Positions 12,736 to 62,207 of a stretch of DNA of 64,000 bases are shown piece after piece (positions within the stretch are counted from its first letter, which is position 1; every line of letters begins with the position of its first letter). Position numbers and translations under genes: made by a program. The stretch lies in assembly GCA_964648465.1 (NCBI GenBank), contig CAZYMU010000001.1:56230-120229 (forward strand), read 5' to 3'. The notes below the pieces were generated by a model that ran no database searches, had not been told where the DNA came from, and saw only the letters and a list, made by a program, of their open reading frames with translations. The stretch comes from an uncultured Eubacteriales bacterium. GTDB lineage: Bacteria; Acidobacteriota; Aminicenantia; Aminicenantales; Aminicenantaceae.

Positions 12736-14688
12736 CTATTTAAGTATATTGGTTTTTATCCCAAGCTCGATATAGCGCCCTCTCCATGGAAATCCGGGTT
12801 CAGAATAAATATAATAGTCAAAGACATTAGTGATTTTGATAAACAATTCAGTTCGTTTAAACTGGAAGGAAATAATTGTATCCAGGTTAAAATAAGAATG
12901 AATATCCAGCAGTTCATTTGATTGATAATCGAGCCAGGATGATGAAGATGCTGCCAGGCCCATAATTACAATCCTGAATCGTTGGGAAGGGTAGATAGTA
13001 CAATCAAAATTTAAGCTGTGCCTTGGGAGAGCATCTAGTGGCCGGTCGTCACTTTTGTTCTTGTGGTCAAGGAAAGTGTAGTTTATAGTTGTTGAAAGCC
13101 ATGGAAAAGCTTTTTGAAATTGAAGTTCAAATCCATTAATATAAGCTTCTGCGATATTAAAATATCTACGGCGGAAATCGAACTCCGGAAGACGGAGGCT
13201 GTCTATCATGTCTTTGAAGCTGGTCATAAAGACAGAGCCTGTAAGGAAGAATATTTTATTGTATGTAAAACCTAATTCGCAGTTACTTCCTGATTCACTC
13301 AGGAGGTCTGGGTTTCCTGATGAACTCGAGTACATGGAACGCATAGAGGGAAATTTTGATTTCTTGGAAAAGGAGAGATGGAGCTCTATATATTCCAAAG
13401 GGGAATATTTAAGTCCGATAAGAGGATTTACTTTTGATGCATTTTTTCCAATAAACTTGTCTAGATAATCATAACTTAATCCCACTACAAGTTTCCATCT
13501 CTTGAAAAAAGATATATGATCTTCGATCCCGGCTGAAAATGTAGCTTGGTTGTATTTATCCCAGGATTCTCCCTCATCATCCTGAGTTCGAGCTACATCT
13601 CTCTTATAATTGATGCTGAATTTTAATGAGTTAGAAGAACTCATAGCAAGGTCTGCAAGAGTGAAGAGACCTAAAACAGAGTTGTCAAAAGTGCTTTCGA
13701 AGAGGCGCTGAATCATTTTTGGATCTTTGAATTGGTCGAGAGTATTGTCATAGTGGACAAAATAACCTCGAAAGCGGAGTGTGGATTTTTCCCCCAGGGC
13801 AGTATAACCACCTGCATTCAGTGTATAACGGTCCCAGTTTTTAAAACGCCAGTACCGTGGTTTATAAGCATCAAGTTGTGATGGCATAGCATAATTGGAT
13901 TTGTATATTCCTCCGTTAAAGAGAATTTCAGTGCTGTTTGATGGGTAATAGTAAATTTTTGTATTAAGATTTATTCTTTCATATTCTGTGTTTGACCTTT
14001 CGATCCTATTCCTTTCATCTTGATCTGGGAAATAAAATCCATCTGAATCCTGATAAAGCATATTTCCTGCAAAGGCAAAGCGCTTCAGTTGAAATACTGA
14101 ATTTAAACCCAGGCTGCGTGTATTTTTTTCTCCATATGATGTGTGAAACGATAGGGTTGGTTTGACAGAAGGTCTGCTTGTTATAACATTAACTATTCCA
14201 CCTAGGGTATTAGGACCGTATAGAACAGATGATGGCCCTTTGGTGAGTTGAAGGGAATCAATCCCATAGGCGGATATTGTTTTTAGATCAAACGTACTGT
14301 AGTAAGGCTCATAAACAGGAATCCCATCGATTAACAATGCAATCCGTTTTGAATCCATGCCCCTGAGCTTTAACGTGTATGTGGATTTATCTCCAAAAGT
14401 CACCATCACTCCTGGAGCGTATCTAATAGCTTCTGAAAGGTCGAGTGGTTTCATGTGTTCAATCTTTGTATGACCCAGTCTTGTTACCGTTGAAATAGGG
14501 AGGTCTCTAGGAGCTTCGGCTACTACAAGAATTTCTTCCGTAATCTTTAGTGTCTTTTTTGATTTTGTCTTCTTTTCATCTTCTTTTTGTTTTTCTTGGG
14601 AAAAAGTTAAACAAGGTAATAAAATTAGTGCCCAAATGACAAAATTAATAATGGTTTTTTTGAGAGGGTGATTTGATGAATTATTCAT
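12736..14688 (-). CDS. TonB-dependent outer-membrane receptor
   Basis: 650 aa. Has a signal peptide, an N-terminal plug region (ISTVTRLGHTKIE...DLSEAIRYAPGV) and a long beta-barrel with repeated aromatic-rich strands. Confidence 0.7.
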   Translation of the reverse strand: MNNSSNHPLKKTIINFVIWALILLPCLTFSQEKQKEDEKKTKSKKTLKITEEILVVAEAPRDLPISTVTRLGHTKIEHMKPLDLSEAIRYAPGVMVTFGDKSTYTLKLRGMDSKRIALLIDGIPVYEPYYSTFDLKTISAYGIDSLQLTKGPSSVLYGPNTLGGIVNVITSRPSVKPTLSFHTSYGEKNTRSLGLNSVFQLKRFAFAGNMLYQDSDGFYFPDQDERNRIERSNTEYERINLNTKIYYYPSNSTEILFNGGIYKSNYAMPSQLDAYKPRYWRFKNWDRYTLNAGGYTALGEKSTLRFRGYFVHYDNTLDQFKDPKMIQRLFESTFDNSVLGLFTLADLAMSSSNSLKFSINYKRDVARTQDDEGESWDKYNQATFSAGIEDHISFFKRWKLVVGLSYDYLDKFIGKNASKVNPLIGLKYSPLEYIELHLSFSKKSKFPSMRSMYSSSSGNPDLLSESGSNCELGFTYNKIFFLTGSVFMTSFKDMIDSLRLPEFDFRRRYFNIAEAYINGFELQFQKAFPWLSTTINYTFLDHKNKSDDRPLDALPRHSLNFDCTIYPSQRFRIVIMGLAASSSSWLDYQSNELLDIHSYFNLDTIISFQFKRTELFIKITNVFDYYIYSEPGFPWRGRYIELGIKTNILK

Positions 14689-14861
14689 TATGATATCTCC
14701 TTTTCAAATACGGAAGGCAAAACTGTTTCCCGTTTTACCCTATCGGTCAAAGACCATGGCTGAAGAGCTTTAGTACCCTTGACTCGGAGAAAGCGATAAA
14801 TCTAGCATAAAATAAATATATTGTAAACAGAATGGTTTTTGCTTAGCTTCTGATAAATATT

Positions 14862-28475: not shown

Positions 28476-30459
28476 TTTCCAGTTCTTTTAATTTAAGTTT
28501 TTTTATTTCATCCCTGAGTTTTGCCGCTTTTTCAAATTCAAGATTTTTTGCGGCTAACCTCATCGAATTCTCGAGCTTTTCGATTCGCTGTTTTCTCTCC
28601 TGGGGAGAAAGATAGATATCCTTGTCTTCAGAGATTCGAGAATAGTCAAAATAGTCTCTTTCATAGATGCTGGTTAAAACCTCATCGATTCTTTTTTTAA
28701 TAGATTGAGGAGTGATATTGTTTTTTTTATTGTACTCCTGTTGAATTTGTCGCCTTCTGTTTGTCTCGGCAATCGCCTTCCTTATAGAGTCTGTTATGAC
28801 ATCAGCATAAAGAATAGCTTTACCTGAAACATTTCTGGCTGACCTGCCAAAAGTTTGAATGAGGGAGGTTGCAGAACGGAGAAATCCTTCTTTATCCGCA
28901 TCGAGTATCGCAACCAGAGATACTTCTGGAAGGTCAAGCCCTTCTCTCAGCAAATTTATTCCTATCAGGGCGTCAAATTTTCCCTTCCTTAGGTCTCTCA
29001 ATATTTTAACACGGTCCAAAGTGTCGATTTCAGAATGAAGATATCGGACATAGAGTCCGAATTCGTGATAATAACGTGTGAGATCTTCAGCCATCTTTTT
29101 TGTCAGAGTTGTTACCAAAATTCTCTCGTTTTTCCCTGCCCTTTCTGTGATTTCAGACATCAAATCATCGACTTGGCCTTTAACAGGACGCACTTCAATT
29201 TTTGGATCTGTAAGGCCTGTAGGTCTTATAATCTGCTCTATTACCCTTTTACCTGCCTTCTGTAGTTCATAATTTCTTGGAGTAGCTGAGACATAAAGGA
29301 CTTTGTGAATCCTGCTTTCAAACTCGTTAAAATTCAATGGTCTGTTATCAAGGGCAGATGGAAGCCTGAAACCATGATCAATAAGCGTCTGTTTTCGTGA
29401 ACGGTCTCCATTATACATCCCACCGATTTGCGGGATAGTGACGTGTGATTCATCGATAATCATAAGGAAATCTTGAGGAAAATAATCAAGAAGTGTGAAT
29501 GGGGGTTCTCCCGGCTTTCGGAGGCTTAGATAAAGAGAATAATTTTCTATGCCTGGACACCAGCCGAATTCCCGCAGCATCTCAATGTCAAAAAGAGTTT
29601 TTTCTTCAATCCTGTTGGATTCTATGATTTTTCCCTGTTTTTTAAAGAAGCACACACGTTCTTCAAGTTCTTTTTCTATGGAGGAAATAGCATAATCAAG
29701 AATGTCTGGAGGTGTTGAGAAATAAGTCCTTGGGTAGAGGACGATCTTATCAAAAGAGTCCAGTGTTTTGCCAAGAAGAGGGTCTAGACTAGAGATGGCT
29801 AATATTTTGTTATCTCCAAGTTCTATCCTGTAAGCATAGTCCTCATAAGAAGGAAAAACATCGATAATATCTCCTCTGACACGGAAACACCCCCTTTTAA
29901 AATCACCTTCTTCTCTGTTATATTGAATCTTGACGAGATTCTCCAGAATATTTTTCCTTGATATGATTTGGTTTACTTCAAGAGGAATACTCAGAGAATA
30001 ATATGTTTGTGGCGAACCTATTCCATAGATACAAGAAACAGATGCAATGATCGCTACGTCTTTTCGCTGGAAAAGAGAGTTTGTGGCGCTGAGTCTTAGG
30101 CGGTCTATCTCATCATTTATTGTAGCTTCTTTTGATATGTAAATATTGGAAGCAGGGATGAAGGCTTCGGGTTGGTAATAATCGTAATAGCTGACAAAAT
30201 ATCCTACAGCATTTTCTGGGAAAAAGTGGCGGAATTCCTGGTATAGTTGAGCAGCTAGGGTTTTGTTGTGGGAAATGACAAGAACAGGTTTGTTAATTTT
30301 CTCTATGATATTTGCTATTGTAAAAGTTTTCCCAGAGCCTGTGACTCCCATTAAAACTTGATGTTTAATATTTTTATTTAACCCATCATGCAGTTCCTGG
30401 ATTGCCCTTATTTGATCTCCTTTTGGCTTGAATTCTGAGTGGAGTATAAATTTTTTCAT
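28465..30459 (-). CDS. uvrB: excinuclease ABC subunit B
   Basis: 664 aa. The helicase motifs (GVTGSGKTF, DESH) and a C-terminal UVR coiled-coil domain are present. Confidence 0.9.
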   Translation of the reverse strand: MKKFILHSEFKPKGDQIRAIQELHDGLNKNIKHQVLMGVTGSGKTFTIANIIEKINKPVLVISHNKTLAAQLYQEFRHFFPENAVGYFVSYYDYYQPEAFIPASNIYISKEATINDEIDRLRLSATNSLFQRKDVAIIASVSCIYGIGSPQTYYSLSIPLEVNQIISRKNILENLVKIQYNREEGDFKRGCFRVRGDIIDVFPSYEDYAYRIELGDNKILAISSLDPLLGKTLDSFDKIVLYPRTYFSTPPDILDYAISSIEKELEERVCFFKKQGKIIESNRIEEKTLFDIEMLREFGWCPGIENYSLYLSLRKPGEPPFTLLDYFPQDFLMIIDESHVTIPQIGGMYNGDRSRKQTLIDHGFRLPSALDNRPLNFNEFESRIHKVLYVSATPRNYELQKAGKRVIEQIIRPTGLTDPKIEVRPVKGQVDDLMSEITERAGKNERILVTTLTKKMAEDLTRYYHEFGLYVRYLHSEIDTLDRVKILRDLRKGKFDALIGINLLREGLDLPEVSLVAILDADKEGFLRSATSLIQTFGRSARNVSGKAILYADVITDSIRKAIAETNRRRQIQQEYNKKNNITPQSIKKRIDEVLTSIYERDYFDYSRISEDKDIYLSPQERKQRIEKLENSMRLAAKNLEFEKAAKLRDEIKKLKLKELEIVS

Positions 30460-30544
30460 TCTATCAGAAGTTTTTATGAATAATCATATTATAACAGTAA
30501 ATTAAGCTAATCGTAATCAGTAAATTGCTCTCCTGGATTATTAA

Positions 30545-30668
30545 TAAAAATTGCTGATATGTCATAACAATGAAACCTAGATTTGATCATTTTCCATGAA
30601 AATCTTGGAACTAGTTTATCCTCTATCATATCGATAATATAATTTAAATCTATTATCAGCAATTTTTA
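30545..30668. mobile_element. MITE-like 124-bp unit (copy U1) with perfect 15-bp terminal inverted repeats TAAAAATTGCTGATA / TATCAGCAATTTTTA
   Basis: Read directly from the sequence. No coding capacity. An approximately 85% identical inverted copy lies at 31660..31783. Confidence 0.55.
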
Positions 30669-30670
30669 CC

Positions 30671-30799
30671 TTACAGGCGAGCCGATCTTACAGCATCTGC
30701 TGCGTTACAGCGCATTCGTGGTGAAGGACCACAACTTCATGCGCTGTGCCTTGCATCTGCAGCAAGCTTGACTCGTGAATCATCCAGGACTTCCTGGAT
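30671..30799 (+). repeat. conserved structured repeat module (M5), copy A; second copy at 49234..49350
   Basis: About 90% identity to 49234..49350. Contains nested perfect hairpins (CAGCGCAT[..GTGGTgaaggACCAC..]ATGCGCTG and CTTGCatctgcaGCAAG), and in this copy a terminal ATCCAGGacttCCTGGAT hairpin. Confidence 0.5.
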
Positions 30800-30971
30800 T
30801 ATTAATAAAAATTGCTGAAAGAATTAATATGATATAAACTAATTTTGATTGTTCTCCATGATATGCTCAGAACTAATTTATACTATACTCTAGGCTAGAT
30901 AATAACCTAACAGCGTGAAGCATATGAATTTTAGGGGATGGAGGAAGCGACATTGAAAGATTTAGACTTTT

Positions 30972-31130
30972 TTCTGAGTCAATCTTCGAGGGAACCAGAG
31001 AAAGTCTGGCCTGATGGATGTGTGAGCACTGTATAATCAATGATGCGGTGTTAATAGTGGCTCGCGGACATTGTGGAGTTGCTTAAGATAAACATGCGGA
31101 GTTCCATCAGAGCCGAGAAGATCAGGGAGG
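30972..31130 (+). repeat. conserved repeat modules M1-M2, copy A (inverted homolog at 62044..62207; M2 also at 49115..49165)
   Basis: About 85% identity to the reverse complement of 62044..62207. Contains a conserved GTGTGAGCACTGTATAATCAA block with a TATAAT hexamer. Confidence 0.5.
31032..31037 (+). promoter_or_regulatory. conserved -10-like TATAAT hexamer inside repeat module M1
   Basis: CACTGTATAATC is conserved exactly in the inverted copy at 62139..62144. No strong -35 was found. Confidence 0.3.
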
Positions 31131-31166
31131 AAGGTGTGAAAATGCTGAAGATTTAAAATGATTTTA

Positions 31167-31547
31167 TTATTTAATGTGAGAAACCATTTTTACAGAGCCT
31201 TTGAATTGTGCTCCATCCATTATTGAAATGCGGGAAGCTGATATATCACCCGTCATTTGGCCTTCTTTTTCAATAAAGACTTTTCCATTTGCAAATATAT
31301 TTCCCTCAACAAGACCCTTAATTGTGATGTTCTTTACATGAATGTCAGCATTGACTTCGGCTTTTGATCCAACGGTCAAATTGTTATTTTCCATGTTTAT
31401 TTTCCCCTGGAACTGCCCTTCTATTATCAAATCTTCACTGGTGTATAGTTCGCCTTGAAAATTCAGGGTTAGCCCAAAGCGAGCGATTGTTTTTGGGATT
31501 ATTTCTTCAACAAAACTTTGATTTTCTTTTTTGTCTGGATCCAGCAT
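31167..31547 (-). CDS. bactofilin-family cytoskeletal protein (DUF583 beta-helix)
   Basis: Degenerate beta-helical repeats are present (LIIEGQFQGKINM, LTVGSKAEVNADIHV, ITIKGLVEGNIFANGKVFI, GQMTGDISASRISIMDGAQFKGSV). The tracked ORF extends to 31637, but its first about 30 codons lie in the repeat element, so the internal Met start is preferred. Confidence 0.55.
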   Translation of the reverse strand: MLDPDKKENQSFVEEIIPKTIARFGLTLNFQGELYTSEDLIIEGQFQGKINMENNNLTVGSKAEVNADIHVKNITIKGLVEGNIFANGKVFIEKEGQMTGDISASRISIMDGAQFKGSVKMVSHIK

Positions 31548-31659
31548 TATACCTTCTGTTGAAATAATGTGCAGATTATAGATTGCTCCCTTTAATATGT
31601 CAACAGAATTATAATACAGAAGTTCCAGCAGAGCCAAGAAGATCGGCTCGCCTGTAAGG

Positions 31660-31783
31660 TAAAAATTGCTGATAATAGATTTAAATTAGATCATCGATAT
31701 GATAAATGATAAACTAGTTCTGAGGGTTTCATGGGGAACGATCAAAACTAGGTTTAGTTGTTATAATTTATCAGCAATTTTTA
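31660..31783. mobile_element. MITE-like 124-bp unit (copy U2), inverted relative to U1
   Basis: Same 15-bp termini. Its interior is the reverse complement of U1 at about 85% identity. The junction sequence GATCGGCTCGCCTGTAAGG matches the reverse complement of the U1/M5 junction. Confidence 0.55.
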
Positions 31784-31887
31784 TGAATAGCCCACCGCAA
31801 TTATCATGTTGATATCTATTCCATTATATTTGATAATTATATTGTAAACTTTTATCAAGGTATTTTCGTCTAATAGGGGAAAGAAGA

Positions 31888-32490
31888 GTGATGGAAGAAA
31901 ATGAACAAAACATTATTGACCGAATCTGCCGAGGCGATACTGCAGCATTTCAAAGACTGGTGGAGAGGTACAAGAAGAAGATTTATTTCCTCGCCTATGA
32001 TATTCTCGGCGATCACCACGAAGCTGAAGATATCTCCCATGAAGTATTCATCAAAGTGTTTCGTTCCCTTAAGAATTTCCGCAGGAATTCAAAAATGAGC
32101 TCCTGGATTTATCAAATTACTGCTAATACCTGCATAGATGCTCTGCGCAAAAAGAAATCAAAACCCCAAGTAAATCTGGAGGATTTCAATCATGTTTCTC
32201 TACAGGACAATCTTGCTGGAGGCGGCACTCGTGTCCAAAATCCTGAACTTAGTGCTGAGGCATCTATCATGCAACGTAGGATTCAAAATGCCTTGTATAA
32301 AGTCACCCCAAGAGAGAGAGCAGTGTTTGTGATGCGTCATTACAATGATTTAGAGATAAAAGAGATTGCAGAAGTCCTGAACGTTTCTTCAGGGACGGTC
32401 AAGAGCCTGCTTTTCCGTGCTTTAAAAAAAATGCGAAAAGAGCTTTCAACTCATCGGGGAAAGTCCTCAATGGAGGCTAACTATGACTGA
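31888..32490 (+). CDS. ECF-type RNA polymerase sigma-70 factor
   Basis: 200 aa. Sigma-70 region 2 (YFLAYDILGDHHEAEDISHEVFIKVF...WIYQITANTCIDALR) and region 4 HTH (EIAEVLNVSSGTVKSLLFRA) are present. Confidence 0.8.
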   Translation: MMEENEQNIIDRICRGDTAAFQRLVERYKKKIYFLAYDILGDHHEAEDISHEVFIKVFRSLKNFRRNSKMSSWIYQITANTCIDALRKKKSKPQVNLEDFNHVSLQDNLAGGGTRVQNPELSAEASIMQRRIQNALYKVTPRERAVFVMRHYNDLEIKEIAEVLNVSSGTVKSLLFRALKKMRKELSTHRGKSSMEANYD

Positions 32491-35160: not shown

Positions 35161-35232
35161 GCGGACATAACTCAGCGGTAGAGTACGAGCTTCCCAAGCT
35201 CGGGGTCGCGGGTTCGAATCCCGTTGTCCGCT
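35161..35232 (+). tRNA. tRNA-Gly (anticodon CCC)
   Basis: Manual fold gives acceptor GCGGACA/TGTCCGC, a D-arm with AGCGGTAG, anticodon stem CGAGC/GCTCG with loop TTCCCAA, and T-arm GCGGG-TTCGAAT-CCCGT. CCA is not encoded. Confidence 0.85.
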
Positions 35233-39077: not shown

Positions 39078-39575
39078 TTATCCCTCTGTTTCTCCGAAAG
39101 GATTGATATCCTTAAGAGAAACAATTATATTTTCTTTATACCCACCCAGGGAATCTGAGAAAGATTCTGCCTTAGCAACCAGCCTTCCGATTTTACTGTA
39201 TCCGATATGAATCTGCCGGTTTAGAGATTTGTTAATGAGATTTTTATTTGGATTATATATGTAGCACGATATCAGAATAAGGAAAACAGAAACTGCAGCC
39301 AGGATGGGTTGGAGCGAGGGCTGGCCAAGAAAATCAAAGCTGATTTTGAATTTTCTCTTTTTAACAGGAGTTTTATAAAGGCGTTCCAGCAAGTTCTTGC
39401 TTACATCTACTTCTGGAAAATCAGCAAGAGTCATGGTTGTTTCTTTAATAGACAAAAAAAGACCTGTGCATTTCTGGCAGGATTTTAAATGTTCTTCAAC
39501 CATTTGTTTTTCTTTTAAGTTAAGCTCATCCTCTATATAAGGAGATAAAAGTTCTTCTATGTGTTTACATTCCAT
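39078..39575 (-). CDS. zinc-finger (HxxxCxxC) transmembrane anti-sigma factor
   Basis: HLKSCQKC motif at the N-terminus and a single TM helix. Overlaps the upstream ECF sigma gene by 11 nt. Confidence 0.55.
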   Translation of the reverse strand: MECKHIEELLSPYIEDELNLKEKQMVEEHLKSCQKCTGLFLSIKETTMTLADFPEVDVSKNLLERLYKTPVKKRKFKISFDFLGQPSLQPILAAVSVFLILISCYIYNPNKNLINKSLNRQIHIGYSKIGRLVAKAESFSDSLGGYKENIIVSLKDINPFGETEG

Positions 39576-40125
39576 TTCTTTCCTCCTTTTTTTCTTTGAG
39601 GATTCTTGCCAGCTGAAGTCTTCCTCTATTAACGCGAGATTTAACCGTTCCCAGAGGCAGGCTCATGATTTCTGCTACTTCTTTGTATTTTTTGCCCTGA
39701 ATATCTCTGAGGATGAGCGCTATTCGCATCTCTGATGAAAGGTTTTTGAATCCTTCCCAGATAAATTTTCTAGTTTCGTTCTTCAAAATGCTTTCCTCAG
39801 GACCAATGTTTTTAAACGAAGAAACATAATATTCATTAAACTCATCGCGTGTTTTATTTTTCCATTTTGTTTTTCTGTATTGATCGATGAGGTAATTTCT
39901 TGTGAGAGAAAGAAGCCATGCGATGAAATTTTTATTAAAATCATATTTGGATAGAGAATAGTGAAGTTTTAGAAAAATTTCTTGTGTTACATCTTCAGCT
40001 TCTTCGTATTTCCCAGAGAACTGGTAAGCGATGTTAAAAATCCTTTTAGAGTAGGTGTTAACGAGCATTCTCCAAGCTCCTTCGTTTCCTTCCAGACATT
40101 TTTCTATAATCTTTTCTAATTGCAT
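39565..40125 (-). CDS. ECF-type RNA polymerase sigma-70 factor
   Basis: 186 aa with sigma region 2 and region 4 motifs (EDVTQEIFLKLHYSL ... WLLSLTRNYLID ... VAEIMSLPLGTVKSRVNRG). Confidence 0.8.
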   Translation of the reverse strand: MQLEKIIEKCLEGNEGAWRMLVNTYSKRIFNIAYQFSGKYEEAEDVTQEIFLKLHYSLSKYDFNKNFIAWLLSLTRNYLIDQYRKTKWKNKTRDEFNEYYVSSFKNIGPEESILKNETRKFIWEGFKNLSSEMRIALILRDIQGKKYKEVAEIMSLPLGTVKSRVNRGRLQLARILKEKKEERNGM

Positions 40126-40321
40126 TTACCTCACCTTTGTAGACGAGATTTTGGAGAAAAAAGTTCCATGACAGTTTTTATGAATAATTTAGAACAAGTA
40201 TATTTTATAATAATAGTGAAAACAAGTTATAACTATGTTATTTACTCATAAGAATAAAGAAGATAAAATTAAATGTTGTAAACAAATTGCAACTATTTAA
40301 AGGAAAGTAAAGTTTGGAAAA

Positions 40322-47182: not shown

Positions 47183-47268
47183 GCCGGAGTGGCGAAATTG
47201 GCAGACGCGCTGGACTCAAAATCCAGTTCCAGGCAACTGGAGTGTGGGTTCGACTCCCTCCTCCGGCA
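47183..47268 (+). tRNA. tRNA-Leu (anticodon CAA), class II with long variable arm
   Basis: Manual fold gives acceptor GCCGGAG/CTCCGGC, D-arm GTGGCGAAATTGGCAGACGC, anticodon stem CTGGA/TCCAG with loop CTCAAAA, and a long variable arm. The T-arm has one mismatch. Confidence 0.75.
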
Positions 47269-48842: not shown

Positions 48843-49111
48843 TTCCTAATGATATCAGGCAGATTTATTGTATGCTAAGTTAGAAATAACTGGGTTGTGT
48901 TTATAGTTAATGTGAATAAGCCAGTTTTATATATTTTTAATGAAAAAAGTTGATTTTTAATTTAAATATAGTATAATAAAAGTAAGCTTTGTTAAGCTGG
49001 CTGGACAGAGTTTAAACCCTTCTTTATTATCCCCTTTTTGCTTGTTTTCCCCAAATCAAAACAGCCAGCATTATATTTTTTGCTAAGTAATCCAGACTAA
49101 CTCCAACCCAG

Positions 49112-49350
49112 CGCTGCTTAAGATAAACATGCGGAGTTCCAGAAGAGCCGAGAAGATAGAGAGGAAATGGCGTTAAAATCTTAGTGGAGCGCAAACATGC
49201 ACTCAAATTCATCTATTATCAGCAATTTTTACCTTACAGGCGAGCCGATCTTACCGCATCTGATTCGTTACAGCCCATTCGTGGTGAAGGACCACAACTT
49301 CATGCGCTGTGCATTGCATCTGAGGCAAGCTTGACTCATGAATAACCCAG
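49112..49350 (+). repeat. modular intergenic repeat, copy B (modules M2-M3-TIR-M5), 110 bp upstream of the C69 dipeptidase gene
   Basis: Matches 31078..31125 (M2), 30654..30790 (TIR+M5) and the reverse complement of 61968..62100. Confidence 0.55.
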
Positions 49351-49459
49351 GTTAAATATTTCTTATATATCATTTTAAAATAAATAAGAAAACAAAACCA
49401 ATTGAAAAATGTGTTAAGTTGACCTCATACTTTTCTCTATGTTATAAGCTTATTGGATT

Positions 49460-51079
49460 GTGGCTGAAATGTCACACAAAAAAAGGAGACAGACGATGAA
49501 AAAGCTAAAACTATCGAAATATTATTGGATTCCTATGTTTATTTTAATTATGTTGTTTTTTGCTTATTCTGCCGAGATTTTGCAGAATGATCAAAAGATA
49601 GAGTTTGAGGGGTGTACGAGTATTATTGCTGGGAGACTAGCCTCAGTCGATGGTTCTACAATGACTTCTCATTCGTGCGATAGTGGAACAGATCGCACCT
49701 GGATAAATATAGTCCCTCATAAAAAACATAAAAAGGGGGAGATGTGCACGCTTTATTTCCAATCAAAAATGACAAAAGGGCCTGATCATCCGGACAGACT
49801 TCCAAAAGGAAAAATTCCCCAGGTTCCTGAAACATATGCATATATTAATACGGCTTATCCGGTAATGAACGAGTATCAACTTGCTATCGGAGAAACTACT
49901 TTTGGGGGGAAACGTGAGCTGCACAGCGGTATCGGTATTATAGATTGTCCGGAACTTTATCGCCTTGTACTGGAGCGTGCCAAGACGGCCAAGGAAGCGA
50001 TCAAAATTGCTGATGAATTAACTAAGAAATATGGTTATATTGACCGGGGGGAATGTTTCACTTTTGCAGACCCCAAAGAAACCTGGCAGTTTGAGATTTT
50101 GGGACCAGGAAAAGGGAAAAAAGGGGCGGTATGGGCAGCCCAACGCATTCCTGATGATCAGGTGGGGGTTTCAGCGAATTCCTCCAGGATCAGAGAAATT
50201 AACCTCAAAAACGAAGATTATTTTATGGCATCGAGTAATGTGTATTCTTTGGCTGAAGAAATGGGTTGGTGGAACAAAAAAAGCGGCAAGCCCTTTGAGT
50301 TTTGCTATGCTTATGCCTCGAGAAACAGTATGGGTTCGCGCCGTCGGGAGTGGAGAGTATTGAGTTTTGTAGCTCCATCACTAAAATTGGATCCTAACTC
50401 AGAAAATTTTCCATTTTCTGTTAGGCCAGATAAAAAAATATCTGTGAAGAATATTATCGATATTTTTAGGGACGCATATGAAGGCACAGAATTTGATATG
50501 ACCAAAAGCATGATAACTGTTAACAGAAAAGGAGAGAAAGTTAAAAGCCCGGTCGCATGTCCTCATATGAACAGGGAACTGATGGCACTGTTCAGTATTA
50601 AAAGGGAAAGGACTATTTGTTCATCCTATGCAACATATCTTCAAGTTACTCAATCCAGAGGATGGCTTCCTGATGCTATAGGAGGAGTTGTTTGGATAGG
50701 CTATGATAACCCTGCAACAACACCTCATACGCCATTTTACTGTGGAATTTCTCGAATGCCTGATTCTTATATGGTAGATGGAAGATGGGGGTTTAAACGT
50801 GATTGTGCTTGGTGGGCGTTCCGAAGAGTCAGCCAGTTGGCTAAGTTCAGATGGCAGGATATTACTAAGGATATAGCAAAAGTCTGGAAAAATATCGAAG
50901 AGAAAGCCTTTACTGATCAGCCACGAATTGAAGAAGAAGCTGAAAGGATGTATAAAAAAAATCCTGAGAAGGCTAAAAAATTTCTAACGAAGTACTGTCT
51001 TGATGTCGCAAATCAGGCAGTTAAGACATACTGGAAATTGGGTGATGACCTGTGGGCTAAATACACAAGGTATTTTTAA
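49460..51079 (+). CDS. secreted peptidase C69-family dipeptidase
   Basis: A signal/TM segment is followed by GCTSIIAGRLASVDGS, the N-terminal nucleophile Cys motif of C69 dipeptidases. An alternative start lies at 49496. Confidence 0.6.
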   Translation: MAEMSHKKRRQTMKKLKLSKYYWIPMFILIMLFFAYSAEILQNDQKIEFEGCTSIIAGRLASVDGSTMTSHSCDSGTDRTWINIVPHKKHKKGEMCTLYFQSKMTKGPDHPDRLPKGKIPQVPETYAYINTAYPVMNEYQLAIGETTFGGKRELHSGIGIIDCPELYRLVLERAKTAKEAIKIADELTKKYGYIDRGECFTFADPKETWQFEILGPGKGKKGAVWAAQRIPDDQVGVSANSSRIREINLKNEDYFMASSNVYSLAEEMGWWNKKSGKPFEFCYAYASRNSMGSRRREWRVLSFVAPSLKLDPNSENFPFSVRPDKKISVKNIIDIFRDAYEGTEFDMTKSMITVNRKGEKVKSPVACPHMNRELMALFSIKRERTICSSYATYLQVTQSRGWLPDAIGGVVWIGYDNPATTPHTPFYCGISRMPDSYMVDGRWGFKRDCAWWAFRRVSQLAKFRWQDITKDIAKVWKNIEEKAFTDQPRIEEEAERMYKKNPEKAKKFLTKYCLDVANQAVKTYWKLGDDLWAKYTRYF

Positions 51080-52233: not shown

Positions 52234-52275
52234 GCGGGATAATTTAAAAAGATTACTATTACCCGCATTTTTTTA
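52234..52275 (+). terminator. intrinsic-terminator-like hairpin plus T-run, oriented for plus-strand transcripts
   Basis: GCGGGATAAT...ATTACCCGC forms a 9-bp stem with one bulge, followed by TTTTTTTT. It lies between two minus-strand genes (icd, mdh), so its role is unclear. Confidence 0.3.
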
Positions 52276-52451
52276 ACCTGAATTAGTCATAAATTATGCC
52301 TACACCAATATTTATTTTCCATTATATCTGCTAGTTGCGTTGATTTTTCCTTCAGCATAACATTTAACTCCTTTTCCTTGCAATTCTTTTCCTCTATATC
52401 AGCATTCTTTATGAATAATCCAGGTTAATTAATATTTTAAATTATGTTATA

Positions 52452-61919: not shown

Positions 61920-61967
61920 GAAAAAAAAGCACTAAGACTAATTAACCTGTATTATTCACCCAAAGGG

Positions 61968-62207
61968 TAAAAATTACTGATAATAGTTTTAATAAGATGA
62001 ATTTGAGGGCATGTTTGCACTCCACTAAAATTTTTAACGCCATTTCCTCCCCGATCTTCTCGGCTCTGCTGGAACTCCGCATGTTTATCTTAAGCAACGT
62101 AATGATGTCCCCGAGCCACTATTAACACCGCCACTTTGATTATACAGTGCTCACACATCCATCAGGCCCGCCCGACTTTGTCCGGTTCCCTCGAAGATCG
62201 ACTCAGA
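61968..62207 (-). repeat. modular intergenic repeat, copy C (M1-M2-M3-TIR in minus orientation), forming the upstream region of the OPT transporter gene
   Basis: Its reverse complement aligns to 30972..31130 and 49115..49231. The conserved TATAAT lies at 62144..62139 on the minus strand. Confidence 0.55.

Follow-up and report, generated by a model that had tools for sequence, protein, structure and literature searches.

Shuffled intergenic repeat blocks in an Aminicenantes genome are very probably parts of one miniature transposable element family with IS1380-type ends

INTRODUCTION

Why should the same short blocks of noncoding DNA recur in different orders and orientations at separate loci of one bacterial genome? 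The question is raised by a stretch of 64,000 nucleotides (nt) from an uncultured member of the Aminicenantaceae (GenBank assembly GCA_964648465.1, contig CAZYMU010000001.1, positions 56,230 to 120,229), referred to here as the window. A preliminary description of three intergenic loci in the window, A, B, and C, divided them into recurring blocks (U, M1, M2, M3, M5, and an inverted-repeat block, here T) and proposed that these are shuffled by site-specific recombination or template switching at GATC. We find it very probable that the blocks are instead parts of a single noncoding family of miniature inverted-repeat transposable elements (MITEs) that carries the ends of IS1380-family insertion sequences (ISs) and is abundant in the Aminicenantes (candidate phylum OP8). 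Six observations made directly on the sequences carry this reading: the anatomy of the units, their target duplications, their copy number, a filled and an empty site, the identity of their ends with those of IS1380 elements, and covariation in a hairpin that most of them contain. We regard the family as new but ordinary and see no GATC-directed recombination system behind it. A literature search found no paper on MITEs in Aminicenantes.

RESULTS

Structure of the repeat units

Repeat finding and all-against-all BLAST reproduced the block orders first reported. Locus A (30532-31796) reads U1, T, M5, U′, M1, M2, a bactofilin gene, an M2 fragment, inverted T, and inverted U; locus B (49112-49351) reads M2, M3, T, and M5; locus C (61946-62207, minus strand) reads M1, M2, M3, and a partial T. 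Exact copies of a 34-bp block, TATCAGCAATTTTTACCTTACAGGCGAGCCGATC, lie at 30654(+), 49217(+), and 31641(−); shuffled sequences gave none. Mapping of the blocks over about 0.86 Mb of retrieved related DNA (individual sequences carry L numbers) resolved them into units of common design. Each is built from a left end “ab” (CCTGGATTATTCAT-AAAAATTGCTGATA, lengthened to 28 nt by TAAAAATTGCTGATA), one body, an inverted inner repeat b′ (TATCAGCAATTTTTA), a linker CC-N5-GG, usually a hairpin core, and a 13-nt right terminus a′ (TGAATAATCCAGG). The terminal inverted repeats are CCTGGATTATTCAT...ATGAATAATCCAGG and are 24 to 28 nt long in units without a core. The core runs GGCGAGCC...GRCTCG, lies 13 nt inside the right end, and corresponds to the tail of T plus M5.

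The alternative bodies are mutually unrelated. They comprise the AT-rich types U and V (about 90 to 105 nt), a 252-nt type that we call E1, and at least two further recurrent AT-rich types. E1 consists of M1-M2-M3 plus a 5′ segment, X, and measures 251 to 255 nt in at least 24 copies. It has a terminal inverted repeat of its own (ATGAATTTGAGGG/CCCTCAAATTCAT, 13 to 26 nt), as a nested MITE might, yet all but 2 of about 24 copies lie within the repeat context of the family, and no target duplication of its own is visible. In every composite the core points the same way with respect to E1 and U, which argues for common descent and not for repeated insertion.

Units are noncoding and 148 to 469 nt long, within the limit of about 600 bp for MITEs, and they fall into size classes according to their parts. 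Units with a body and a core measure 253 to 259 nt (about 28 inverted pairs), and those lacking the core measure 148 to 150 nt (e.g., window 52277-52424). Units with E1 are 345 to 354 nt without the core (L064 and L090) and 456 to 469 nt with it (L095, L136, and L036). Protein coding was considered and rejected: in full-length copies a 59-amino-acid open reading frame (ORF) with a GGAGG-ATG start extends from M3 across the hairpin, but U and V units lack it and its frame is disrupted in locus B. The frames of ORFs in E1 are likewise disrupted from copy to copy, and no codon periodicity is evident in the core (0.34/0.29/0.36).

One E1 copy has itself been invaded. In the metagenome contig Ga0307380_10135542 (L030, 296-2292), a group II intron with a 5′ end of GTGCG lies in the minus strand of E1 between GGAACTCCG and CATGTTTAT, with a 451-amino-acid reverse transcriptase/maturase ORF at 456-1811 on the minus strand. 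The site is 2 to 3 nt from the point in E1 at which the M2 fragment starts at window position 31621, and E1 may be an intron homing site.

Copy number and target sites

Block sharing limited to three loci, with no other copies and no heterogeneity, would have counted against the preliminary description; more than 100 copies were found. A 24-mer from M2, searched against one genome for each of 185,579 species, gave 15 exact matches, all in contigs of Candidatus Aminicenans sakinawicola (OP8) and many at contig ends. A 24-nt pattern from the T/M5 core occurred in more than 116 metagenome stretches among the matches listed. The 0.86 Mb of related DNA holds 299 end-repeat sites, with outer flanks that include TTAA (36 sites), CTAA (24), TTAG (23), and CTAG (12).

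Identical 4-nt flanks border 15 of 56 unique units, compared with 3.25 ± 1.6 by permutation (maximum of 10 in 2,000). Flanks agree at three or more of four positions in 29 of the 56, and their consensus is YTAR. The identical flanks include the nonpalindromic CTAA, TTAG, TTAT, GTAA, and TTCA, which rules out duplication of TA next to a longer inverted repeat. One clean pair of a filled and an empty site was found. The filled site in L053 reads ...ATAATGTA, a 257-nt unit, and AGTATTATG..., and the empty site in L020 reads ...ATAATGTATTATG...; the flanks are 96.5% identical and the boundaries fall exactly at the unit ends. The architecture had been called unusual for a MITE, but inverted repeats, 4-bp duplications, size classes, and a filled/empty pair are what define one.

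These results also bear on whether the repeats are palindromes of the repetitive extragenic palindromic (REP) kind, or derivatives of IS200/IS605, moved as single-stranded hairpins by REP-associated tyrosine transposases (RAYTs) or TnpA-Y1. The core is indeed a long imperfect palindrome, flanked by TTTA and TGAA and lacking its own duplication, and the mosaic arrays resemble those of bacterial interspersed mosaic elements (BIMEs). Nevertheless, whole units have terminal inverted repeats of 13 to 28 nt and are bordered by 4-bp direct duplications, which are not a product of Y1 transposition; the core orientation is fixed; and no Y1 transposase was seen in the scanned ORFs of the window or among multicopy ORFs. 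We therefore hold this origin to be highly improbable.

Origin of the ends

Viral contigs were scanned for the 17-nt unit end. A single locus had an inverted pair, 1,649 bp apart, and this proved to be an IS (L143, 2723-4371) with CCTGAATTATTCATA at both ends, TTTAG on both flanks, and a gene for a 440-amino-acid transposase. Against the NCBIfam model NF033539, “IS1380 family transposase” (cutoff of 180), this protein scores 388 bits, and against PF13701 it scores 476 bits; an identical protein is annotated in Clostridium sp. 2-1. The element lies directly beside a phage tail-fiber-like gene (L143, 2723-5345; IMG/VR contig 2786546159_000004, classed as viral). Four elements with relatives of this transposase (L170 to L173; 63 to 68% amino acid identity) have the same or nearly the same termini and target duplications of 4 to 5 bp (TTAAT, TATAT, TTAAA, and TTAA). 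L143 and L170 to L172 were each verified as IS1380 by NF033539 or PF13701. The ends of the MITEs are identical over 14 to 17 nt to both ends of L143, L171, and L172, while the ends of L170 are variants (CCCACATTATTCAT/CCCGAATTATTCAT). This identity identifies the MITE ends as IS1380-family ends.

The IS5 family was also considered as a source, since its target preference is YTAR, similar to the MITE flanks (PMC5009759). That candidate was superseded by the exact end match to IS1380 elements. An IS1380-type transposase would then be the motor, acting in trans, and the true parent may be another, unsampled member of the IS1380 family.

Sources of the mosaic arrangement

Module boundaries had been said to coincide with GATC. 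In the window this holds exactly for one junction only (31639-31646, AAGATCGG); the remaining breakpoints lie 9 to 24 nt from a GATC or are unrelated to one, and locus B starts at CGCTGCTTAAG. Family-wide, 3 of 43 internal homology breakpoints fall within 8 nt of a GATC, compared with 6.4 expected, which speaks against recombination directed by the motif. The long composite has three copies of the 7-mer CGATCTT/AAGATCG: one stands at the start of M1, an inverted one closes M2, and the third lies in T. Base pairing is predicted between the two that E1 contains. This accounts for the recurrence of the motif near the edges of blocks defined from three loci.

The junction on AAGATCGG has an ordinary explanation. 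The 8-mer is present both in E1 (...GAGAAGATCGG...) and in the reverse complement of the core (...GTAAGATCGGCTCG...), and the junction is therefore the expected product of a deletion between direct 8-bp copies. It comprises the last 8 nt of a 26-nt E1 remnant and is common to that remnant and the inverted unit that follows, and orthologous loci carry a complete 456-nt E1-type MITE in place of the remnant. Other deletions used unrelated repeats: L030 lost its core between two copies of GCATCTGC, and L136 lost a left end between two copies of AAATTGCT. Nesting was seen in L009, L019, and L020, in which units are inserted in the CTAA of another unit's spacer. In the second unit of locus A, homology to the family ends at GGGAGGA, the start of M3, and sequence shared with orthologous loci (the bactofilin 3′ flank) starts there.

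Bodies can also be replaced. Over 2 kb of uvrB, the identity between L015 and L136 is 99.0%, and from b′ on (b′, core, a′, TTAG, and bactofilin gene) it is 97.2%, yet at the same site L015 has a left end and V body (124 nt) and L136 has a spacer and E1 body (about 300 nt). The neighboring E1 copy in L136 is only about 90% identical, so the donor was another copy. The simplest account of the swap is gene conversion or homologous recombination, with the common end and core sequences as the regions of homology.

A dedicated shufflon- or invertase-like system, or template switching, with crossovers at GATC or AAGATCGG would fit the junction on that 8-mer, the threefold motif in the composite, and a 169-nt inverted repeat, formed by 31639-31796 and 30534-30702 with 42 nt at 100% identity within it, that brackets the bactofilin gene. 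We consider such a system very improbable. Apart from the breakpoint counts and the deletion just described, the unit boundaries are inverted repeats with target duplications, and the orientation of the bactofilin gene does not vary among the four assemblies of locus A. A search for a recombinase elsewhere in the genome had been suggested; Pfam searches of 20 window ORFs and the precomputed annotations of L001 and L140 gave housekeeping functions only, with no recombinase and no transposase. Recombination between copies does occur in the sense that segments are exchanged and lost, through body swap and direct-repeat deletion, but these are ordinary processes, and they lend no support to a dedicated mechanism.

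The hairpin core

The core is 100 nt long (100 to 102) in 87 of 107 unique copies. A set of 59 copies, mutually less than 94% identical, shares one long hairpin when read on the strand complementary to T-to-M5. Its 35 pairs are 97.9% canonical, compared with 94.0 ± 0.3% in column shuffles (maximum of 94.9%) and 25 to 41% with slid partners. Ten pairs show compensatory changes, with at least two Watson-Crick types each (e.g., CAGCGCAT/ATGCGCTG, CAGGGCAT/ATACCCTG, and GTAAAGGAT/ATCCTTTAC). Among the pair cells, 1,824 are Watson-Crick, 198 are G·U, and 12 are A·C. The core at 30676-30775 folds to −51.6 kcal/mol on the minus strand (z = −2.9) versus −38.6 kcal/mol on the other (z = −0.7). The apex of the hairpin in L099, L061, L089, L056, and L063 holds an extra insert of about 85 to 90 nt (...GGTGATCTCAT...GAGATTGCC...GCAATGACG...), which looks like another small repeat nested in the core.

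Such a structure could mean that the hairpin, E1, or both are multicopy genes for structured noncoding RNAs, or cis-regulatory RNAs, and that mobility is secondary. The compensatory changes and constant length of the core would suit this explanation, as would the strand preference of its fold and the fact that its non-Watson-Crick cells are G·U on that same strand. E1 likewise folds far better on its plus strand than on its minus strand (−63.7 versus −28.6). There is also a mild bias in orientation with respect to neighboring genes, with the body side toward a gene start in 59 cases versus 32 and with codirectional contexts divided 27 to 15, counts that include orthologous loci and are not independent. 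The core side is often within about 20 nt of a stop codon (orthologous loci included). Against this stand the inverted repeats, target duplications, filled/empty site, and IS1380 termini, which are those of a transposon. In addition, E1 copies are 93% identical with almost no covariation (one covarying pair), core-less units occur, and the neighbors are unrelated housekeeping genes. Rfam 15 gave no match to the repeats at the gathering score over the whole window, and at E ≤ 10 nothing relevant was found in 30400-31900 or 48900-49500, which yielded only two chance-level hits each. We judge that an RNA gene family as the primary identity of the repeat is unlikely. A leader of one gene family was rejected as well, since the genes beside the units are unrelated: they include uvrB, a dipeptidase gene, and several dozen other ORFs, among them housekeeping genes.

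Copies in the window and their surroundings

The window contains four family loci (Table 1). Locus A is made up of four units or remnants around a resident bactofilin gene. The fourth locus, 52277-52424, had been overlooked; its inverted repeats are uninterrupted (CCTGAATTAGTCATAAATTATGCC...TATCAGCATTCTTTATGAATAATCCAGG), its V body spans 52296-52407, and TTAA stands on either side (52273-52276 and 52425-52428). A comparison of this unit with L023 as orthologous presence and absence of the hairpin was discarded: the flanks differ and the identity is only 88%, so these are two family members. The M3-b′-core junction of locus B recurs in L022, L037, L047, L048, L073, L077, and L130.

Table 1. Members of the repeat family in the window, their parts, and the bactofilin gene that they enclose
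Feature	Position	Strand	Remarks
Solo end-repeat-like motif, degenerate	30460..30485	−	GATTATTCATAAAAACTTCTGATAGA (minus strand); adjoins uvrB start codon
Locus A, first unit: complete 257-nt MITE, U-type	30532..30788	+	Fits the family's 253-259-nt size mode
Left inverted repeat	30532-30559	+	CCTGGATTATTAATAAAAATTGCTGATA
AT-rich body U	30560-30650	+	
Inner repeat b′	30651-30668		Followed by linker CCTTACA
Hairpin core, 100 nt	30676-30775		Tail of T plus M5
Right terminus a′	30776-30788		TGAATCATCCAGG
Locus A, second unit: E1-type MITE, truncated on 3′ side	30793..31131	+	4 nt (ACTT) after the first unit
Left inverted repeat	30793-30820		
U′-like spacer	30821-30923		
E1 body	30924-31131		X-M1-M2 plus 6 nt of M3
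Bactofilin gene, 126 amino acids	31167..31547	−	Resident, outside the repeat; PF04519, 85.9 bits
Pre-E1 spacer remnant, 15 nt	31606-31620		Precedes the E1 remnant
E1-body remnant, 26 nt	31621..31646	+	M2 positions 21-46
Locus A, inverted U-type MITE	31639..31796	−	Core deleted save its first 12 nt; on + strand begins AAGATCGGCTCG-CCTGTAAGG
b	31660-31674		Read on + strand
U (reverse complement)	31675-31768		Read on + strand
b′	31769-31783		Read on + strand
Degenerate terminus	31784-31796		TGAATAGCCCACC on + strand
Locus B: E1-type MITE with core, truncated on 5′ side	49112..49351	+	
E1 part (M2-M3)	49112-49214		
b′	49215-49231		Followed by linker
Hairpin core	49239-49338		
Terminus	49339-49351		TGAATAACCCAGG
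Flank	49352-49355		TTAA
Complete short MITE, 148 nt, V-type, core-less	52277..52424	+	
Locus C: E1-type MITE	61946..62207	−	Lacks X segment and left inverted repeat
Terminus	61946-61958		CCTGTATTATTCA on + strand; flank TTAA
Core position			9 nt only (CCCAAAGGG)
b	61968-61982		
E1 (M3-M2-M1)	61995-62207		

Orthologs of locus A represent three populations (the window and L140; L015 and L095; L136), and uvrB of L015, one of the Candidatus Aminicenans sakinawicola contigs with an exact M2 match, is 96.6% identical to that of the window. The bactofilin gene is 94% conserved in L015, L095, and L136. Its promoter (31575-31603, minus strand) is a perfect sigma-70 consensus, TTGACA-17-TATAAT, with 12 of 12 matches; conservation with the orthologous loci ends exactly at the −35 hexamer, and repeat-derived DNA starts directly upstream. 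The solo motif at 30460-30485 is kept in the orthologous loci of the three populations and appears to derive from an element remnant. A second sequence that resembles the 28-nt end repeat, TCTAAATTATTCATAAAAACTGTCATGG at 40166-40193 (minus strand), lies upstream of an ECF sigma factor gene (39565-40125) and may be either the decayed remains of a solo end or a coincidental match. In the left end of the first unit, 30537-30565 (minus strand) resembles an outward-directed promoter (ATGACA-17-AATAAT) pointing at uvrB.

An assembly or binning artefact, through collapsed repeats or chimeric joins, might be suspected, as short-read Logan contigs that carry the flanking genes (L003, L005 to L008, and L141) all stop at the same bases inside repeat copies, 62146 and 31766. 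Such breaks are expected of a multicopy repeat. Loci A and C are collinear, at 99.3 to 99.9% identity, in independent JGI assemblies of other samples (99.3 to 99.7% for contigs L140 and L001), and related arrangements occur in an NCBI single-cell coassembly, which leaves an artefact next to no probability. Exact-protein lookups for UvrB and GlnA found nothing on record.

Rfam also identified a molybdenum cofactor riboswitch (RF01055, 75.3 bits) at 14681-14801 (minus strand), upstream of a TonB-dependent receptor gene (12736-14688) and in the neighborhood of MobA/MobB-like and formate/nitrite transporter genes. Two tRNA genes (RF00005) lie at 35161-35232 and 47183-47268 (plus strand); neither adjoins a repeat copy.

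DISCUSSION

The blocks of the three loci are best read as pieces of one MITE family, and a simple scheme would account for their arrangement. Units would insert by the cut-and-paste action of a DDE transposase supplied in trans, duplicating 4 bp of an AT-rich, YTAR-like target. The mosaic would then have four sources: subfamilies that combine common ends and hairpin with different bodies; units that land beside or within one another; truncations and deletions between short direct repeats, including the junction on AAGATCGG; and an occasional exchange of bodies between copies by homologous recombination.

Several points weigh against this reading. A perfect 4-bp duplication is kept by only 27% of units, and a second filled/empty candidate, L135 versus L052 and L032, is imprecise and not clean. 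Beyond the terminal 15 to 17 nt, no internal block is common to the MITEs and the four retrieved ISs. A tblastn search of the window and L009 to L139, a biased 0.9-Mb sample from which absence throughout the genome does not follow, found no IS1380 transposase, and neither a multicopy transposase ORF nor any other transposase was seen in the window or the roughly 0.86 Mb of related DNA. No transposase lies between distant repeat pairs, where the intervening genes are housekeeping genes and one group II intron. An autonomous partner in Aminicenantes is therefore putative. Finally, the right 28-nt repeat is split by the hairpin, which, with its unvarying length and compensatory changes, shows more constraint than expected of a decaying passenger, and core-less units may be either ancestors or deletion products.

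Something beyond transposition may thus act on the hairpin. It may have a role at the RNA level or in transposition. A bolder proposal, which we offer with considerable doubt, is that the hairpin is a selected, strand-specific RNA module and not a passenger, one that the MITE has wired into hundreds of Aminicenantes intergenic regions. It could serve as a 3′-end stabilizer or processing site just past stop codons or as a partner of the outward promoter-like sequence in the element ends. If such a module is real, body swaps would re-pair it with different promoter-bearing bodies.

With the family recognized, a repeat that interrupts short-read assemblies and occupies intergenic regions in an uncultured phylum can be annotated in concrete terms. 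The result explains the shuffling of blocks without a new recombination system and ties the repeat to the IS1380 family. Housekeeping genes have units within tens of bases of their start and stop codons, and strains that are 99% identical differ in the units they carry. The units are therefore useful for marking strains and may modify gene expression. Of all the features, only the covarying hairpin merits further study, and it is a defined candidate for such work. Structured-RNA screens of Aminicenantes genomes will pick up this element.

Among known systems, BOX elements of Streptococcus pneumoniae and BIMEs of Escherichia coli are combinatorial modular repeats in which a few blocks appear in varying order and number. 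They are without the regular signature of inverted repeats and target duplication, and BIMEs consist of REP palindromes linked to RAYT enzymes. The modular appearance of the Aminicenantes elements is alike, but their modularity is explained by subfamilies, nesting, and deletion. In neisserial intergenic mosaic elements (NIMEs), RS blocks are separated by dRS3, a short repeat that is the target of a recombinase; the preliminary description gave GATC or AAGATCGG a similar part, as a short sequence that recurs between blocks. The recurring short sequences of the Aminicenantes elements are instead the elements' own inverted repeats, and GATC shows no enrichment at breakpoints.

IS1380-family ISs, such as ISEcp1 and the elements L143 and L170 to L173, have the terminal CCTGAATTATTCAT, identical at both ends, and AT-rich duplications of 4 to 5 bp in common with the family. 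They differ in that the window elements are only 148 to 469 nt long, have no transposase, and match them only in the terminal 15 to 17 nt. Closest in lifestyle are the Correia elements, MITEs of Neisseria that are small and noncoding, have terminal inverted repeats with a target duplication, and occur in hundreds of intergenic copies. Their size subtypes are distinguished by an internal segment, and long hairpins form in their transcripts. With lengths of about 100 to 155 bp, Correia elements duplicate TA and have no known parent IS. The Aminicenantes MITEs share their internal-segment subtypes, hairpin, and intergenic position but have a 4-bp duplication, IS1380 ends, far more diverse bodies, and a discrete 100-nt hairpin insert in the right repeat.

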